Origin: a virus
Strand: one strand, 5' to 3'
Length of the DNA stretch: 35,709 bases
Virus record (IMG/VR): IMGVR_UViG_3300045988_067384
Coordinates: 1 to 35,709 of that record
The notes beneath the pieces were generated by a model. That model saw only the letters and a program-made list of their open reading frames with translations, searched no databases and was not told the DNA's origin. Position numbers and translations under genes: made by a program. Of the stretch, positions 10,491-33,803 are shown piece by piece (within the stretch, counting starts at the first letter, position 1; the number at the start of each line of letters is the position of its first letter).

Positions 10491-10582
10491 ATGCCCGAAA
10501 ATGTCCATAGACAGTCATTCTAATATCATAAACATAGCCTTATCATTGATGTATGACGTATCGGAAAGAAAGGAGTGGAGGT

Positions 10583-10855
10583 ATGGATAACATAACAGAG
10601 TATATCAAGCCGGAACTGCTTATATTGGTTCCTGTACTGATCGTGATTGGATTATTCCTTAAAGAGACAGAGAAGGTCAACGACAAGTATATTCCGGCAA
10701 TCTTAGGAGCTGCAGGAGAGGTGCTGAGCGCACTGTATGTGTCAGCGGTTTCCGGAATAAGCCTTATGGGTATATTCACAGCAATAACACAGGGAGTTCT
10801 TGTGGCAGGGGCAGCAGTATATGTAGATCAGATTGCTAAGCAGGCAAAGAAGTAG
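10583..10855 (+). CDS. Holin (phi LC3 / Phage_holin_5-like)
   Basis: Shows ITEYIKPELLILVPVLIVIGLFLKETEKVNDKYIPAILGAAG...AITQGVLVAGAAVYVDQIAKQAKK. Start set at ATG 10583 (GGAGTGGAGG SD). Confidence 0.85.
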   Translation: MDNITEYIKPELLILVPVLIVIGLFLKETEKVNDKYIPAILGAAGEVLSALYVSAVSGISLMGIFTAITQGVLVAGAAVYVDQIAKQAKK

Positions 10856-10866
10856 GTGATCAGCTC

Positions 10867-11085
10867 ATGTTAGAGTCAATAATAGTAGGGCTGTTAAGTC
10901 TACTTGGAACCTGCATAGGCTCACTGGGTGGAATGAAACTCATGGGCTATCGTATAGAGCAACTTGAAAAGAAGGTTGATAAACACAACCACTTTGCGGA
11001 GCGTATGCCGGTGGTAGAGGAACAGATTAAGGTACTCAACCATAGAGTGGAAGATTTAGAAAGGAGTGAAGGCAGTGGACATTAA
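10867..11085 (+). CDS. Membrane-anchored coiled-coil protein of the lysis cassette (XhlA-like?)
   Basis: N-terminal TM helix IIVGLLSLLGTCIGSLGG, then the coiled coil IEQLEKKVDKHNHFAERMPVVEEQIKVLNHRVEDLE. It lies between the holin and the endolysin. Confidence 0.4.
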   Translation: MLESIIVGLLSLLGTCIGSLGGMKLMGYRIEQLEKKVDKHNHFAERMPVVEEQIKVLNHRVEDLERSEGSGH

Positions 11086-11935
11086 GCAGTGTTTTTTAAC
11101 AAATAATGATTGCTATAAGGCAGCAGGAAATATCACACCAAATGGTATAATCGTACATTCAACCGGGTGCAACAATCCTAACCTTAGAAGATATGTACAG
11201 CCGGATGATGGAATACTGGGAAAGAACCCAAACGGAAACGACTGGAACAGAGCAATGGCCAAGGGTGATCGCAAATGTGTACATGCTTTCATTGGAAAGG
11301 ATAAAAACGGCACAGTAAGGGTATATCAGACTCTTCCTTGGAACTATAAGTGCTGGGGTTGTGGATCAGGCTCTAAGGGTTCATACAACGGTTCTTATAT
11401 CCAGCTTGAGATCTGCGAGGACGCTCTTAACGATAGTACATATTTCACTGCGGCGTTCAAGATGGCAGCAGATCTGTGTAGGTATCTGATGGATAAGTAT
11501 AACATTCCGGTTGAGAATGTGATCAGCCACAAGGAGGCAGCAGCTAGAGGATATGCAAGCAGCCATGTAGATCCTGAACACTGGCTTGCCAAGTTCGGCA
11601 AGGATATGAAGTGGTTCAGAAATCAGCTCACAGTTAAGGTTATCAACGAAGAGGCAACCGGTGTGCTCAAGCCGACAACGAAGCATGAGCCACTTGATAA
11701 GTTGAGTCAGCCGTATAAGGTCCGTATCACAGCAACAGCGTTGTACATACGTTCTGGACCAGGTACAGGCTATAAGGATGTTGGCCTTCTCACTGATGAC
11801 AAGGCCATGATAAAAAAGAACCCATCTTATTATTTTCCGAAGGGCGTATATACCATTTCGGAGACAAAGAACGGATGGGGCAGATTAAAGAGTGGAGTTG
11901 GCTGGATATACCTCGATTATACCAAGAAGGTATAA
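11075..11935 (+). CDS. Endolysin: N-acetylmuramoyl-L-alanine amidase (Amidase_2/PGRP) with C-terminal SH3 domain
   Basis: Has GIIVHSTG, VHAFIG, IQLEICE and ISHKEAAARGYASSHVDPEHW. The C-terminus is RSGPGTGYKDVG...GWGRLKSGVGWIYLDY. GTG 11075 has better SD spacing than GTG 11066. Confidence 0.9.
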   Translation: MDIKQCFLTNNDCYKAAGNITPNGIIVHSTGCNNPNLRRYVQPDDGILGKNPNGNDWNRAMAKGDRKCVHAFIGKDKNGTVRVYQTLPWNYKCWGCGSGSKGSYNGSYIQLEICEDALNDSTYFTAAFKMAADLCRYLMDKYNIPVENVISHKEAAARGYASSHVDPEHWLAKFGKDMKWFRNQLTVKVINEEATGVLKPTTKHEPLDKLSQPYKVRITATALYIRSGPGTGYKDVGLLTDDKAMIKKNPSYYFPKGVYTISETKNGWGRLKSGVGWIYLDYTKKV

Positions 11936-29058: not shown

Positions 29059-29079
29059 TAGAAATATATAAGATATCTA

Positions 29080-29111
29080 AGAGCTTGTCATTAATGGCAG
29101 GCTCTTTTTTT
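29080..29111 (+). terminator. Rho-independent terminator ending the late operon
   Basis: 11-bp stem agagcttgtca / tggcaggctct (two G-U pairs), loop ttaa, then a T-run. Confidence 0.75.
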
Positions 29112-29141
29112 AAAAAAAACACTAAAAAATACAAAAAAGCA

Positions 29142-29170
29142 TTGACAATGCACCTTATAAGGTGTATTAT
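29142..29170 (+). promoter_or_regulatory. Promoter P1 with a palindromic operator in the spacer
   Basis: TTGACA (29142-29147), 17-nt spacer, TATTAT (29165-29170). The spacer carries the perfect 14-bp palindrome CACCTTATAAGGTG (29151-29164). Confidence 0.7.
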
Positions 29171-29205
29171 AATACTTGTAAGGAAGAGAAAGCGAGGTAA
29201 TAGAA

Positions 29206-29349
29206 ATGACAGTAGCAGAGAAGAGAGCAAAGAAAGCATATAAAGAGGATTTAATCAAGCAGGGGATAGATAAAGGACTGGCCGAAATAATGGCTAAGAC
29301 ATTCACAGAATACCAAATAGTTAGACCAGTAGTAAATGGTAACTGTTAA
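29206..29349 (+). CDS. Small protein (47 aa), first gene behind P1
   Basis: GAGGT SD 7 nt upstream. Product is MTVAEKRAKKAYKEDLIKQGIDKGLAEIMAKTFTEYQIVRPVVNGNC. It is below the ORF-track size cut-off. Confidence 0.5.
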   Translation: MTVAEKRAKKAYKEDLIKQGIDKGLAEIMAKTFTEYQIVRPVVNGNC

Positions 29350-29397
29350 TAACATACAACCGAGCTGGGGCGGTTGCTGGCAGAAAGAGGTAATATA

Positions 29398-29598
29398 ATG
29401 ATAATTTATAAAGATATTTTGCAAAAACTTAAGGATGCAGGGTACAACACCACACGCTTAAGACGTGAGAAGTTACTTCCACAAAGCACAATTACAAGAC
29501 TTAGGAACAATGATCCCATAACCACTGAAACCCTTGGGGTGATTTGCCATTTGACAGGCTTACCAGTAGAAGATCTTATTGAGTATCAAGAAAAATAA
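29398..29598 (+). CDS. Small XRE/Cro-C1-type HTH regulator
   Basis: Product is MIIYKDILQKLKDAGYNTTRLRREKLLPQSTITRLRNNDPITTETLGVICHLTGLPVEDLIEYQEK. AAGAGGT SD 6 nt before ATG 29398. Confidence 0.75.
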   Translation: MIIYKDILQKLKDAGYNTTRLRREKLLPQSTITRLRNNDPITTETLGVICHLTGLPVEDLIEYQEK

Positions 29599-29622
29599 AT
29601 TTTAAAAATATGGATAAAATGC

Positions 29623-29651
29623 TTGACAATGCACCTTATAAGGTGTATTAT
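29623..29651 (+). promoter_or_regulatory. Promoter P2, exact duplicate of P1 and its operator
   Basis: The 42-nt exact repeat ttgacaatgcaccttataaggtgtattataatacttgtaagg occurs at 29142-29183 and 29623-29664. Confidence 0.7.
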
Positions 29652-29700
29652 AATACTTGTAAGGGGAACTTACTAAAAGGCAAGAGAAAGGAGAAAAAGA

Positions 29701-29838
29701 ATGGACGATATGAATGTAGGAGAGTTACTTAAAGAGGTTGCAGAAGAGAATCAGACAAGAAAGATTCTTGAGATCCTTGAGGGATGCAAAGATTTAGCAG
29801 AAGCCAAGGATAAAGTAAAAGCCTTACTTGATAAGTAA
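29701..29838 (+). CDS. Small acidic helical protein (45 aa), first gene behind P2
   Basis: AAAGGAGAAAAAGA SD. Product is MDDMNVGELLKEVAEENQTRKILEILEGCKDLAEAKDKVKALLDK. Confidence 0.5.
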   Translation: MDDMNVGELLKEVAEENQTRKILEILEGCKDLAEAKDKVKALLDK

Positions 29839-29952
29839 GGCTCAGGGGTAAAAGAAAGAGGGTTGAGGACTTGCCACCAACACCCTCAATCTTTTAAAAG
29901 ATGATATCAGAATATTATGGCAAGGTCAATATAAAAGTGAGGTAAAAAAGAT

Positions 29953-30168
29953 ATGAAGTATATTGTAATTGATGAACTTAAGAATGACATGTTCACAAAT
30001 GAATATGAGACAAAGGAAAAGGCTGTCAAGGCAGCAGGTCAGGAATGGGGCAGACTTACCGAGAGCGACAAGAAGCGTAGGGTTGCATTCTATGTATTAG
30101 AATCTGTCAATCCTGATGAAGATGCAGAAAATCACTTTGATGGTGATGTAGTGAAGTCATATAAGTAG
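29953..30168 (+). CDS. Hypothetical small acidic protein (71 aa)
   Basis: GTGAGGTAAAAAAG SD, and a strong terminator follows. No motif recognised. Confidence 0.5.
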   Translation: MKYIVIDELKNDMFTNEYETKEKAVKAAGQEWGRLTESDKKRRVAFYVLESVNPDEDAENHFDGDVVKSYK

Positions 30169-30260
30169 GTAGATACATTGAATACCATATGTGATTTAAC
30201 AAGACTTCTGGTAGAAGAACTTATAGAACACAGGAAGCAGTGATATTCAGGGAGATTACA

Positions 30261-30294
30261 CACCATCCGGAGCAATCCGGATGGTGCTTTTTTT
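30261..30294 (+). terminator. Rho-independent terminator
   Basis: 10-bp perfect stem caccatccgg / ccggatggtg, 6-nt loop, then c plus T7. Confidence 0.85.
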
Positions 30295-30333: not shown

Positions 30334-30357
30334 GGTGGGCACGAGGTGGGCAGAAAT
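30334..30357. repeat. 24-nt direct repeat, copy 1 (candidate integrase-binding / attP element)
   Basis: ggtgggcacgaggtgggcagaaat is identical to 30544-30567. Each copy contains GGTGGGCA twice. Confidence 0.8.
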
Positions 30358-30479
30358 ATGAACCTTATTGACTATATTCCGTACAATGCGTTACGGAAAA
30401 AAGCCTATTTTTAAGGCTTTTGGCATGATTTGATATAGAAATAAATCAATAATAATATTCCAGCTTTGGGCATTAGACA

Positions 30480-30527
30480 AAAACTCCGAAAACTCTGTAA
30501 AATCAAGGCTTTCGGAGTTTTCTTTTT
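30480..30527. terminator. Strong hairpin with flanking A/T runs (possible bidirectional terminator in the attP region)
   Basis: 12-bp perfect stem aaaactccgaaa / tttcggagtttt, 18-nt loop, followed by cttttt. Confidence 0.5.
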
Positions 30528-30543: not shown

Positions 30544-30567
30544 GGTGGGCACGAGGTGGGCAGAAAT
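30544..30567. repeat. 24-nt direct repeat, copy 2, abutting the integrase stop codon
   Basis: Exact copy of 30334-30357. It ends 1 nt before the int stop codon (30568-30570 on the minus strand). Confidence 0.8.
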
Positions 30568-31686
30568 TTATAAAAAATTGATTTTGTCCATTTTTTTATT
30601 GTCGTTAATCACAACTTGCTCAGTAACATGGATGTAAATATCCTGTGTTATATCGCTGTGACTGTGCCCAAGTCTCCTGGCGATTTCGTCCGGAGTCATG
30701 CCGGCAGCAGCTAAAAGAGAAGCATGTGTGTGTCGGAGCTTGTGAGGTGTGATTCTGTGTCCAAGTACTGTCTCGGTTGCTTCTCTCAAATACTTTCCAT
30801 AGGCTGCATGGGACATGTAGGATCCTGTGTGGATGTCCGGCAGGAATAGATCACTTCTCAGCCCCTGCTCTAAAAGCTTTTCTTTACGCCATATGCGGCA
30901 CCGCCTGATCACGGTTTCAAGCTCCGGTTGTATATGAACGTCTCGTACTGAGTTATCTGTCTTGGGCGTTGTTATGATTTTATTGATAGTATCGTAAGTT
31001 TTAGTAACATGAATGACCTTGTTCTGCAGATCAACATCTGTATCTTCAAGGGCAATGAGCTCACCTGTACGAAGCCCGGTAAGTATTAGTATTTTTGTGG
31101 CGTAATACCAGTGCCAATGGTTCTTGCTTCTGATGTATTCAAGAAGTTTGGCTATTTCCGCAGGCTCAAGATATTTATCGGCGGTATCTGCCGGGACGAT
31201 ATCTTCAAACGGCTTCATTTTACGGATGAGTTGATAATTGTCATGATAATCATTTTGATATCCCCAGTTAATCATTGCCTTAAGCCTGGTAATGTAGGTA
31301 TTTAATGTGCTTATGGGCTTACCGGATTTAAGCAGCTTTTCATTGAGATACTGGGCAGTAATATTGTCTACAAGTGTATCATCTCCAAGTAATTTAATAA
31401 CCGAGGTCAAAATGATGTTGTTCCGTTTGGTTGTGGATTTTTTATAGAGTATTTCCTGATTTTGGATATAGATTTCCTGCAGGTCTCCAAGCGTGATTTT
31501 TGTGTTAATTTTTGTGCACTTAAGAGCCTCTTCAATTTTTGCATTTAAGAGCTTAATTGCCTTGTTTCTGTTCTGCGGAGTATCCTTAGGCATGATCACA
31601 GCGACCTTTTTAAGTTTTTCCGAGAGAGGGTCCATATACCTCTCACAATACTTGATTGTTCCGTTCTTTTTAATTTCTGTCCACAT
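30568..31686 (-). CDS. int: Tyrosine integrase (lysogeny integrase with N-terminal arm-type domain)
   Basis: Start taken at MWTEIKKNGTIKYCERYMDP (GGAGGAA SD). Catalytic residues: TGLRTGEL (Arg), HKLRHTHAS (HxxR), LGHS (His), DIYIHV (Tyr). Confidence 0.95.
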   Translation of the reverse strand: MWTEIKKNGTIKYCERYMDPLSEKLKKVAVIMPKDTPQNRNKAIKLLNAKIEEALKCTKINTKITLGDLQEIYIQNQEILYKKSTTKRNNIILTSVIKLLGDDTLVDNITAQYLNEKLLKSGKPISTLNTYITRLKAMINWGYQNDYHDNYQLIRKMKPFEDIVPADTADKYLEPAEIAKLLEYIRSKNHWHWYYATKILILTGLRTGELIALEDTDVDLQNKVIHVTKTYDTINKIITTPKTDNSVRDVHIQPELETVIRRCRIWRKEKLLEQGLRSDLFLPDIHTGSYMSHAAYGKYLREATETVLGHRITPHKLRHTHASLLAAAGMTPDEIARRLGHSHSDITQDIYIHVTEQVVINDNKKMDKINFL

Positions 31687-31837
31687 ATATATTCCTCCTG
31701 TATGAGATAGAAAAAATCCTATCAAAATCAGAAGGCTTGTGATATAATACACTCGTGTATGCGTTATATATAAGCCTTCTTAGGTTTGTAGGTAACACAC
31801 CCCCTCAGATGGGCCAACATCTGGGGGAATTTTTATT

Positions 31838-32746
31838 TTATTTGGCTTCTTCAACAGCGTCCCAGAAATCATCTTCGTTGACTATTGTCAGAAGCTGGCC
31901 GTTCTTTCTTCGCTGAACGGCGTCTTCAACTTTTCTGCCATAACACGAAAATGCCCAACATGGATTACCGTCATTACCGACGACAAGATAGCGAGTCTTT
32001 CTAGTTGGATTGTTTTTGAAGGTTCCACCCAAGTTAGTAATTATCTGAGCTATTTCTTTCCGTGTAGCTTTAAGAGACTGCCCGGTGAAGCATATTTCAT
32101 TGTTTGCAATCTGCATATCTTCACATATGGCACAAATGCCCTTGATACTGTATTTTTCTCTTAATTTGTTTAATTCAATATCATTCAGGTTGTAAGATGA
32201 TTTTAAATCTACAAAATTGCTCAAAAAGCCTTTTAGCATGTCACGCTCTTCATTTGTGATTACTCCATCCTCCAACACAGAGAGCAGGACGCTTTCTATC
32301 TCGTCAAATGGGTAGCAGCCTGACAAGAAGTGATTTTCGTCTATCCATGACTTAAGGGTATATACTTCACTATCCAGTATTTTATCATCTGCCAAAATTC
32401 CATGTATCATACCGGATAAGAATTGAATTGATGAGGTGACTATATCGTAGTAATCTGAGTCCGCTGTGAAGTTATCACATACCCACATGATGTCACTTGC
32501 TTCCTCTGCGGTAAGTATCTCGTCCTCGTAAGCAGTCTGGATCATTGGAATCAACTCGTTGAATGGATGGCGGTCGATTAGATTAGCATGGCATAGGCAC
32601 CAGTGGCTTAACTCATTAACTTCATCCTCTGTGATCTGCCCATCGGCGTGTATTCCGGCTACAATGCCCTTTAAGGTGTTGATTGCCTTATGTAGTTCTG
32701 CAGGCTGTGTGAATTGCCTGTATTCTGATATGTTCTGTGCACTCAT
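31838..32746 (-). CDS. BRCT-domain protein with a duplicated TerB-like N-terminal module
   Basis: C-terminus is CFTGQSLKATRKEIAQIITNLGGTFKNNPTRKTRYLVVGNDGNPCWAFSCYGRKVEDAVQRRKNGQLLTIVNEDDF (BRCT-like). Residues 25-93 and 110-178 form a gapless internal repeat, 22/69 identical by my hand count. AAGGAG SD, 18 nt after the cI stop. Confidence 0.6.
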   Translation of the reverse strand: MSAQNISEYRQFTQPAELHKAINTLKGIVAGIHADGQITEDEVNELSHWCLCHANLIDRHPFNELIPMIQTAYEDEILTAEEASDIMWVCDNFTADSDYYDIVTSSIQFLSGMIHGILADDKILDSEVYTLKSWIDENHFLSGCYPFDEIESVLLSVLEDGVITNEERDMLKGFLSNFVDLKSSYNLNDIELNKLREKYSIKGICAICEDMQIANNEICFTGQSLKATRKEIAQIITNLGGTFKNNPTRKTRYLVVGNDGNPCWAFSCYGRKVEDAVQRRKNGQLLTIVNEDDFWDAVEEAK

Positions 32747-33394: not shown

Positions 33395-33435
33395 TGTACT
33401 ACCTCCTTTCTTGTAAGTAGAATACATTATATGCG

Positions 33436-33549
33436 AAAATAATTCAAGTGATTTTTAATAAAGCAAAAAAATAATTGAAAATAATTCAAGTAATATCTTG
33501 ACACATGAATTTAATTCATGTAATATCATTGACATGAAAATAATTCATG
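33436..33549. promoter_or_regulatory. Divergent immunity-switch region with a repeated operator array
   Basis: AAAATAATTCAAGT occurs at 33436-33449 and 33478-33491. Palindromes are CATGAATTTAATTCATG (33504-33520) and CATGAAAATAATTCATG (33533-33549). Confidence 0.7.
33498..33526 (+). promoter_or_regulatory. Rightward early promoter (PR-like)
   Basis: TTGACA (33498-33503), 17-nt spacer made up entirely of the 17-bp palindrome, TAATAT (33521-33526). It lies about 40 nt upstream of cro. Confidence 0.6.
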
Positions 33550-33757: not shown

Positions 33758-33758
33758 A

Positions 33759-33775
33759 CATGAAAAATATTCATG
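33759..33775. promoter_or_regulatory. Third copy of the CATGAA-N5-TTCATG operator, immediately downstream of cro
   Basis: Reads catgaaaaatattcatg, starting 2 nt after the cro stop. Confidence 0.55.
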
Positions 33776-33803
33776 TAAAGTCTAGAACAGCGGAGGTGAG
33801 AAG

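Follow-up and report, generated by a model that had tools for sequence, protein, structure and literature searches.

A putative self-repressed accessory-gene cassette with twin operator-promoters near attP of a temperate Coprococcus siphovirus

Results

Overview of the cassette

We analysed the whole 35,709-nucleotide (nt) stretch of the IMG/VR record IMGVR_UViG_3300045988_067384 (hereafter the window), which is a complete contig of a temperate siphovirus with a Coprococcus host. At the end of the phage genome that is proximal to the phage attachment site (attP), we found a group of small genes that is likely to be a self-repressed accessory-gene cassette, made of two tandem units sharing one type of operator-promoter. 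Unit 1 comprises the promoter/operator P1/O, orf47 and the gene of a helix-turn-helix (HTH) regulator of 66 amino acids (aa), HTH66. Unit 2 comprises P2/O, orf45, orf71, the dead remnant of a second regulator gene (HTH′) and a terminator. The evidence comes from the anatomy of the cassette, the family-wide co-occurrence of HTH genes and operators, a swap of regulator alleles and the covariation of RNA elements in unit 2. A first-pass annotation of the same DNA had compared the region to anti-CRISPR (acr-aca) operons, and its claims are taken up where our results bear on them.

Twin putative promoters with an operator in the spacer

The sequences at 29142-29183 and 29623-29664 are exact 42-nt copies of each other, and the similarity extends to 60 nt at 88% identity. 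The chance expectation for such a 42-nt repeat is about 1e-17 to 1e-20. Both copies contain a putative promoter of the form TTGACA-17-TATTAT, with -35 and -10 hexamers at the sigma-A/sigma-70-type consensus, 17-nt spacing and A/T-rich DNA upstream. With a promoter score of 11/12, they are the top two promoter-like sites within 28.5-33.5 kb. The spacer between the -35 and -10 elements is filled in P1 and P2 by the perfect 14-bp palindrome CACCTTATAAGGTG, which occurs twice in the whole window, both times in these promoters, and which widens to the 22-bp near-palindrome AATGCACCTTATAAGGTGTATT. In P1/O (plus strand), the -35 element is located at 29142-29147, the near-palindrome at 29147-29168 (core 29151-29164) and the -10 element at 29165-29170. 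In P2/O (plus strand), the corresponding positions are 29623-29628 for the -35 element, 29632-29645 for the operator core and 29646-29651 for the -10 element. The first-pass annotation had described exact twin copies of a near-consensus promoter with a palindromic spacer directly after the late-operon terminator, and both the coordinates and this description were borne out.

The terminator ahead of P1 is intrinsic and closes the tail-gene (late) operon (29079-29106, or 29079-29114 in wider bounds, plus strand; 12-bp stem, then a T-run), and the same terminator stands ahead of the cassette in relatives. At the other end, the cassette is closed by the strong intrinsic terminator that had been placed after the 71-aa ORF (30261-30286, or 30261-30294 in wider bounds, plus strand; 11-bp stem with 7 GC pairs, then T7). 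Between the two units, the stop codon of the HTH gene lies 24 nt from P2, without a terminator in between. The 3′ third of the repeat, ACTTGTAAGG, is neither promoter nor operator. It remains as a leader stub behind P1 (29174-29183, plus strand, the 3′ end of repeat copy 1), and it was rejected as a second operator 21 bp downstream, being the 5′ arm of the conserved leader hairpin of orf45. An exact search for the promoter/operator in viral contigs and species-representative genomes gave no match, and the element is known only from metagenomes. Likewise, the cassette DNA had no match among 50,697 annotated phage genomes.

The twin repeat could be a neutral by-product of recombination without regulatory meaning, and the cassette clearly arose through recombination (see below). 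However, the repeat is identical across nine independent metagenomic copies, it coincides exactly with promoter and operator, and its operator-promoter type is kept beside HTH homologues of only 42-80% identity. We consider a neutral origin extremely improbable.

An HTH_26 regulator associated with the operator type

The gene of HTH66 (29398-29598, plus strand) had been annotated as encoding an XRE-type HTH protein. Indeed, the protein matches the Pfam family HTH_26 (PF13443) over residues 9-65 with 38.5 bits (1.4e-9), above the gathering threshold of 22, and we regard it as the presumed repressor of P1 and P2. HTH66 is a clear member of HTH_26, a family of small Cro/C1-type regulators, yet it belongs to a distinct subfamily with the conserved N-terminus MIIYKDILxKLKDAGYNTTRLRRE. 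The HTH66 family consists of 124 clusters with proteins of 66-70 aa and is specific to Firmicutes phages and mobile elements.

We collected 80 viral loci with members of this family. Promoters of the form TTGAC(A/T)-..ACAY-N8-RTGTA..-10 recur directly beside the HTH66-family genes, and the left half-site is fixed in position in nearly all of them, though the search pattern did not require it. In total, 39 sites were found in 476 kb of HTH_26 loci (38 of 67 loci positive), whereas the same pattern gave 0 sites in a 468-kb control of 87 orf45 loci that have other regulators and no HTH_26. The sole orf45 locus encoding an HTH_26 protein does carry an operator-promoter site. The HTH66 family is thus specifically associated with the ACAY-N8-RTGT operator type.

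The operator also follows the regulator allele. For instance, the closest relatives of HTH66 (74-80% identity; loci L010 and L178-L181) carry TACACC-N6-GGTGTA, which is nearly the operator of the window. HTHs whose recognition helix is of the type ST(L/I)T(K/R)(L/I)R are paired with ACAC..GTGT, and those with SAIQYLR mostly have ACAT..ATGT. This pairing was taken mainly from locus comparisons, as matching helices to operators with a regex table proved overly strict and captured only a few of the operators. HTH homologues, whose search next to varying small ORFs had been proposed as a check, recur at the junction between tail or lysis genes and the attachment (att) site, together with changing sets of ORFs of 41-127 aa. 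In distant phages, the usual order is the HTH gene, then P/O, then a small acidic ORF.

The main immunity regulators of the phage use other sites. The CI/Cro operators have the sequence ACATGAA-N5-TTCATGT, which is unrelated to the cassette operator, and control of the cassette by CI or Cro was rejected since the operators differ. The immunity region itself (33434-33549 and 33758-33776) contains at least 3 copies of ACATGAA-N5-TTCATGT, and a TTGACA promoter at 33498 encloses one of these.

Among the relatives, we also noted an extra LexA/CI-like protein with an HTH_26-type N-terminus and a Peptidase_S24 domain, encoded just downstream of the HTH_26 cassette (L179, 4016-4675; L180, 2098-2793). 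This gene has its own promoter and is followed by genes for a PH_gly_zipper protein and a serine recombinase. The attP-proximal intergenic regions of serine-recombinase relatives (L010, 4208-4520; L178, 3891-4216; L179, 4676-4956) contain many short direct repeats of the types ACATCTGTGT and GACACAGAT, which resemble iterated protein-binding sites.

The layout suggests the following mechanism. When no regulator is present, upon infection or induction, both near-consensus promoters would fire strongly, and P1 transcripts would also read through into unit 2. The HTH66 dimer would then bind the spacer palindrome of both promoters and occlude RNA polymerase at P1 and P2, which would shut off its own operon and the neighbouring payload operon in an Aca-like manner. 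We infer this binding, repression and timing, as well as the function of the payload, from the arrangement of the sequences. Read in this way, the cassette would be an Aca-type autoregulated pair of accessory operons with a candidate new regulator family.

A regulator swap between sibling prophages

The history of the cassette is apparent from a sibling prophage (L014), which has the same att site and tail genes 95% identical to those of the window. In L014, a single promoter with a different operator, CACACGCTTATTAGTGTA, drives orf45, a hairpin, an orf71 homologue and an intact HTH′ gene, followed by a terminator. The HTH′ protein of L014 has 66 aa and is 64% identical to HTH66. The window retains a 3′ remnant of this second HTH_26 gene (30171-30242, plus strand; ..DTLNTICDLTRLLVEELIEHRKQ*), which can be aligned at about 95% with the end of the L014 HTH′ gene on the 3′ side, while about 134 nt of the 5′ part are deleted. 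The remnant sits between orf71 and the terminator, which alters the first-pass picture of a 71-aa ORF running to the terminator. Because the window keeps the 3′ remnant of HTH′, the regulator must have been swapped, and unit 2 is, judged by this comparison, an older cassette that formerly had its own regulator.

In a probable scenario, an L014-like cassette would have lost its promoter region to a donor block of the form P/O-orf47-HTH-P/O, with recombination taking place in the A-rich stretch upstream and in the leader ACTTGTAAGG. HTH′, left without its operator, would then have decayed. This two-step history appears to be the simplest one. In L180-type phages, where the closest HTH relatives are also encoded, the leaders are similar to that of P1, AAGAGAAAGCGAGGTAA, which looks like the P2 leader minus 17 nt. 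In the window, the operator at both promoters is the one that fits the resident HTH, and a change of HTH allele goes with a change of operator between the window, L014 and their relatives. The presence of the matching operator at both promoters is evidence that the pairing of HTH and operator matters.

Unit 2 belongs to a cassette family with a conserved RNA design

About 60 distinct viral loci share the order of elements found in unit 2. A promoter with a lineage-specific spacer palindrome is followed by a hairpin at +1, a GGCAAG box that closely precedes the Shine-Dalgarno sequence, and orf45. After orf45 come a hairpin at the stop codon, a hairpin with a variable stem and the loop ACUUGCC, and a second GGCAAG box, which precedes the ribosome-binding site of the following gene. 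That gene usually encodes a DNA-binding protein of 55-75 aa, which is ribbon-helix-helix (RHH)-like in most lineages and of the XRE or HTH_26 type in others. Extra cargo sometimes precedes the regulator, as orf71 does in the window, and further cargo varies: ORF6N or Rha-like proteins, lipoproteins, membrane proteins, or nothing. Unit 2 is therefore a member of a widespread, previously undescribed cassette family across Lachnospiraceae phages.

In the window, all RNA elements are on the plus strand. The 5′ leader hairpin of the orf45 mRNA (GTAAG-GGGAA-CTTAC, 29659-29673) is present in the centroid fold and has equivalents with other stems in about 60 units. Box 1 (GGCAAG, 29679-29684) adjoins the orf45 Shine-Dalgarno sequence on its 5′ side, and box 2 (GGCAAG, 29919-29924) lies upstream of that of orf71. 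Both are complementary to the loop of hairpin 3 (29858-29887; CTTGCC at 29870-29875), which is found with many different stems and the same loop. The stop-codon hairpin of orf45, GCCTTACTT-GAT-AAGTAAGGC, spans 29821-29841. The P2 transcript of the window folds with these hairpins (z = -2.1).

Pairing statistics were calculated on 35 non-redundant units. The stop-codon hairpin is present in 35/35 units and shows compensatory changes at 4 of its 8 pairs (RNAalifold). In it, 92.9% of cells pair compared with 24-53% in slid controls, and none of 500 shuffles matched the observed covariation. The loop hexamer of hairpin 3 pairs at 6/6 positions with box 1 in 34/35 units and with box 2 in 35/35. Changes in the loop are mirrored in the boxes: L171 has the loop CTTACC and GGTAAG in both boxes, while L158 and the orf41 subgroup (L010, L180 and L181) have CTTGCT and AGCAAG in both boxes. 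In L039, the loop CTTGTC is matched by GACAAG in box 1, and in L117, L050 and L072 the same loop faces a GGCAAG box with G.U pairs kept. Since MAFFT/RNAalifold did not place hairpin 3 in one register, its loop sizes being different, covariation of its stem was taken from per-sequence extraction. What the first-pass annotation had called a weak hairpin after the 45-aa ORF is instead part of this conserved, covarying design. Hairpin 3 is unlikely to be a simple attenuator or terminator, as most lineages have no T-run after it.

Two further features were seen in this region. Between hairpin 3 and box 2 (about 29900-29910 in the window), a 'TATAxCAC' box is conserved in most lineages of the orf45 units L099-L177; it could be an internal -10-like element or a part of the RNA structure. 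In L155 and L161, the orf45 homologue has been called as a long, N-terminally extended ORF, its promoter region is full of ACGTCTATTGACG-type repeats, and hairpin 3 has a bigger loop without CUUGCC. This divergent lineage may be a distinct regulatory variant.

The pairing of the CUUGCC loop with the GGCAAG boxes would probably add a post-transcriptional brake on unit 2, which would restrain translation of the small ORF and of the gene behind it. No match to the RNA elements was found in Rfam 15 at gathering or permissive thresholds (E up to 10), the C4 covariance model included, and the cis-regulatory RNA module is probably new. Moreover, distant modules whose acidic ORFs (50-54 aa) are unrelated still have the +1 hairpin, box 1 and the loop, so that conservation reaches further in the RNA design than in any single protein. 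One may go further and regard the orf45-type unit as a new and widespread module of cis-regulatory RNA and micro-ORF in gut Firmicutes prophages. In this proposal, a CUUGCC loop 3′ of an acidic ORF of 41-54 aa pairs with the box by the ORF's own ribosome-binding site, and often with that of the downstream gene, while the stop codon is locked by a hairpin. The module would gate translation of the accessory operon whichever repressor is present (HTH_26, XRE or RHH), as a portable front end for expression control, and orf45 would be a conserved effector or sensor with a host target. We hold this broader proposal tentatively, our doubts slightly outweighing our belief.

The RNA design also brings to mind a secondary regulatory region of the immI type, in which a small ORF, an antisense-like hairpin and a small repressor control downstream genes such as antirepressors. 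Then orf45 would be a regulatory or leader ORF and the window would hold a version without the antirepressor. In many units, orf45 is followed by an RHH repressor and then by an ORF6N or Rha-type antirepressor-like protein. The order of box 1, loop and box 2 resembles that of phage P1, which is reportedly arranged as a1b1-c4-a2b2, and that of the P4 immunity region, which is arranged as seqA-seqB-seqC. The wider conservation of the RNA compared with any single small ORF and the stop-codon hairpin in 35/35 units also speak for such a region. On the other hand, the window has no antirepressor gene downstream and its cassette ends at a strong terminator, the downstream cargo of other lineages consists of lipoproteins, membrane proteins or nothing, and the Rfam C4 model has no match. 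In addition, the strong amino-acid conservation of orf45, with an invariant core of 10 residues and a confidently predicted fold, suggests a functional protein. We therefore consider an immI-like region unlikely.

Small proteins of the cassette

All four small ORFs were found at the positions given in the first-pass annotation, each with a GAGG-type ribosome-binding site, and all four belong to conserved families. The proteins encoded beside HTH66 had been described as very small and acidic. This holds for orf45 (isoelectric point, pI, 4.6) and orf71 (pI 4.9), whereas orf47 is basic (pI 9.25). The latter (29206-29349, plus strand; 47 aa) belongs to a small conserved family, with 16 representative relatives that share the core MTKAEKKA..DLIKQGIDKE.AEVMAK..PVVN.

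The 45-aa product of orf45 (29701-29838, plus strand) has the invariant core EENQTRKILE. Its family comprises at least 393 clusters, mostly at least 75% identical, with records from Lachnospiraceae, [Ruminococcus] torques and Ruminiclostridium, and synonymous variation shows that orf45 is coding. In line with the first-pass description of this ORF as helical, it is predicted to fold as a two-helix hairpin (predicted local distance difference test, pLDDT, 88.8), for which Foldseek found no meaningful neighbour in the PDB. orf45 is among the most conserved elements of the locus family rather than fast-evolving cargo. Four of its clusters (P0224, P0241, P0288 and P0311) contain a 45-46-aa protein called 'protein phosphatase' at NCBI. 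This name is probably an annotation error, because all that we found behind it is a match to Pfam PP1_inhibitor that, at 17.2 bits, falls short of the cut-off of 22.4 and that we dismissed as spurious.

The product of orf71 (29953-30168, plus strand; 71 aa), with the motif FYVLESVNPDEDAENHFDGD, has relatives in 74 clusters. It is confidently predicted as a compact beta-beta-alpha-alpha-beta-beta fold (pLDDT 92.6), and Foldseek gave no significant PDB match (best E = 0.6). In BFVD, orf71 matched uncharacterised phage proteins only, and orf45 likewise matched none that is characterised. Searches with orf45, orf47 and orf71 against Pfam, PHROGs, NCBIfam and PADLOC gave nothing above threshold, with no toxin or defence domain in Pfam, NCBIfam or PADLOC, and there was no match to PDB sequences. 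The initial statement that the small proteins have no recognised motif was thus upheld. Given their position and regulation, orf45, orf71 and orf47 are most likely small inhibitors of a host or competitor function (anti-defence, exclusion or takeover).

The cassette could alternatively be a lysogenic-conversion, superinfection-exclusion or toxin-antitoxin-like module that is expressed from the prophage, whose proteins protect or stabilise the lysogen while the HTH keeps expression low and steady. It lies at the prophage end by attR, outside CI/Cro control, and autoregulated promoters would give low and steady expression in the lysogen. Related cassettes contain lipoproteins and membrane proteins that are typical of exclusion. 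A small gene followed by a DNA-binding autorepressor is also seen in reverse-order type II toxin-antitoxin operons, and antitoxin models (TacA and RHH) give weak matches to the L090-type regulator. However, no toxin, abortive infection (Abi) or defence model in PADLOC or Pfam matches any protein of the cassette, neither membrane segments nor signal peptides are present in orf45, orf47 or orf71, and acidic soluble proteins of 45-71 aa would be atypical toxins. We judge such a module to be rather unlikely.

Comparison with known systems

Aca proteins commonly control neighbouring operons via repeated inverted repeats (Feussner et al., NAR 2026, PMC13551039). For instance, the RHH protein Aca14 represses its own and a downstream operon via near-identical repeats overlapping the -10 element, RHH regulators can replace HTH ones in acr-aca operons, and RNA motifs of acr operons occur in 5′ untranslated regions and between genes (PMC13551039). 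The cassette shares much with the operons of Aca1, Aca2 and Aca10-14: a promoter predicted to be strong, an inverted repeat over its core elements that recurs at the neighbouring operon, a presumed small DNA-binding autorepressor encoded within the operon, small ORFs, RNA motifs in the 5′ untranslated and intergenic regions and, in sister lineages of the window, RHH proteins in place of the HTH. In the window, the HTH gene lies between orf47 and orf45/orf71, the inverted-repeat operator covers the core promoters and the regulator family is accompanied by changing small genes. As far as architecture is concerned, the first-pass comparison therefore held: the layout is that of a pair of operons of the autoregulated type with inverted-repeat operators, a small HTH and small ORFs. 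The two differ in that HTH_26 (PF13443) is not among the Aca families checked, that no gene of the cassette is a known Acr, and that in the window family the first small ORF and the RNA are the conserved part and the regulator is the swappable one. Furthermore, the RNA motif appears to be based on RNA-RNA complementarity and is independent of the regulator type, so that it is not an operator-mimicking hairpin bound by an Aca.

A true acr-aca locus would mean that at least one of orf45, orf47 and orf71 inhibits the host CRISPR-Cas system and that the HTH founds a new Aca family. Operon architecture, position and the logic of regulator and operator fit this (PMC13551039). AcrIIA22 is likewise the one small gene that is conserved in otherwise hypervariable islands at the prophage ends of gut clostridia (Forsberg et al. 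2021, PMC8545432), and orf71 is predicted to be a compact acidic alpha/beta domain without known relatives, like many Acrs. These AcrIIA22 islands resemble the window in having a single small conserved gene among hypervariable small ORFs at the prophage-host junction in human-gut Clostridia. There is no sequence similarity, however; orf45 is a helical hairpin and the window adds a dedicated regulator, an operator and the RNA design. Neither the proteins of the window nor the cargo of related cassettes matched known anti-CRISPR or anti-defence proteins by sequence or fold, including solved Acrs, and the small proteins have no PHROGs or Pfam match. In addition, orf45 is very highly conserved among phages of many types and hosts of many genera, which would suit a conserved target with a housekeeping or regulatory role better than a Cas target, which is variable. 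In the strict sense, an acr-aca locus is quite unlikely.

Comparable features are found in P22 immI (Pant-arc-ant), P1 immI c4 and the P4 CI RNA (seqA/B/C). These are secondary regulatory regions near the late-gene/att end, with a small autorepressor as the first or second gene of a strong promoter and a cis-encoded hairpin loop complementary to upstream and downstream sequences by ribosome-binding sites. The window differs from them in lacking an antirepressor and an Rfam C4 match, in having a complementarity of only 6-7 nt and in having a translated ORF between box 1 and the hairpin. Its RNA layout resembles P1 c4 and the P4 CI RNA but is not homologous to them. The P22 Arc/Ant pattern was not found either, as the HTH of the window is not an RHH protein and no antirepressor gene is present, while some sister cassettes do have an RHH protein together with an ORF6N-domain protein.

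Some of our results weigh against a self-repressed, Aca-like accessory cassette with an RNA brake. Under the strict pattern, 29 of the 67 HTH loci have no operator-promoter site. A search of the HTH66 profile against all PDB sequences (E up to 1) returned no chain named Aca, although solved Aca structures are present in the PDB. Its top match there, which is also the closest solved relative of HTH66, was the generic small XRE regulator 3tyr (1e-4). The cargo genes of related cassettes are unannotated and none has a known anti-defence function, and orf45 is far more conserved than usual anti-defence cargo. Lastly, since loop and boxes are nearly invariant, the evidence for RNA-RNA pairing rests on only about 5 independent covariation events.

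Prophage setting of the cassette

The phage was found integrated in many human-gut metagenome contigs, which are 99.9-100% identical to the window up to 30473, where the identity between prophage and window ends. The HTH gene is uncalled in most integrated copies, and its disruption there was rejected on the basis of this DNA identity. In Coprococcus sp. OM04-5BH, the host gene that flanks the prophage has a counterpart with 98% identity. The 17-nt sequence ATTCCAGCTTTGGGCAT (30457-30473) exactly matches the 3′ end of a host tRNA gene (anticodon GAA), and we assigned it as the attP core because the same 17-mer forms the tRNA 3′ end in an unoccupied Coprococcus locus (L182). Exact copies of the 24-nt direct repeat GGTGGGCACGAGGTGGGCAGAAAT lie on either arm of attP (30334-30357 and 30544-30567, plus strand) and are probably arm-type sites of the integrase. 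The site follows the pattern of tRNA-targeting tyrosine integrases, with a core from a tRNA 3′ end, an adjoining int gene and arm repeats. Right after the core (30480-30527, plus strand), we noted a perfect 12-bp hairpin (AAAACTCCGAAA / TTTCGGAGTTTT) with a T-run, which in the lysogen would probably stop read-through from the host tRNA into int.

Behind the cassette, the minus strand encodes the tyrosine integrase (30568-31752; Pfam Phage_integrase, 8.9e-23; phrog_1), a BRCT-domain protein and the CI-type S24 repressor. The placement of the cassette between late genes and attP/int, as first annotated, is thereby corroborated. The BRCT-domain protein (302 aa; 31838-32746, minus strand) matches phrog_3989 (annotated as 'unknown function'; 4e-85) and, weakly, the candidate defence model PDC-S48 of PADLOC (1.5e-6). 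Its gene may have an accessory or defence role and be expressed in lysogeny. On its other side, the cassette directly follows the tail genes because the holin (phrog_1129) and endolysin genes (10553-11935, plus strand) are located upstream of the terminase small-subunit genes. Holin and endolysin ahead of the terminase genes instead of after the tail genes is an unusual order.

Implications

If the HTH_26 family is Aca-like, the signature TTGACA-..ACAY-N8-RTGTA..-10 would be a searchable flag for accessory operons and candidate anti-defence operons. It would serve for phages of the Lachnospiraceae, a bacterial group that is dominant in the human gut but poorly accessible to experiments. The natural exchange of regulators between the window and L014 provides a ready-made specificity experiment. 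In addition, orf45, orf71 and orf47 are conserved, structured micro-proteins in a position and regulatory context typical of inhibitors, which makes them concrete candidates for screening. Post-transcriptional control of anti-defence operons has been recognised recently, and the covarying loop-box RNA design, which has no Rfam entry, would extend it by a layer of RNA-RNA pairing.

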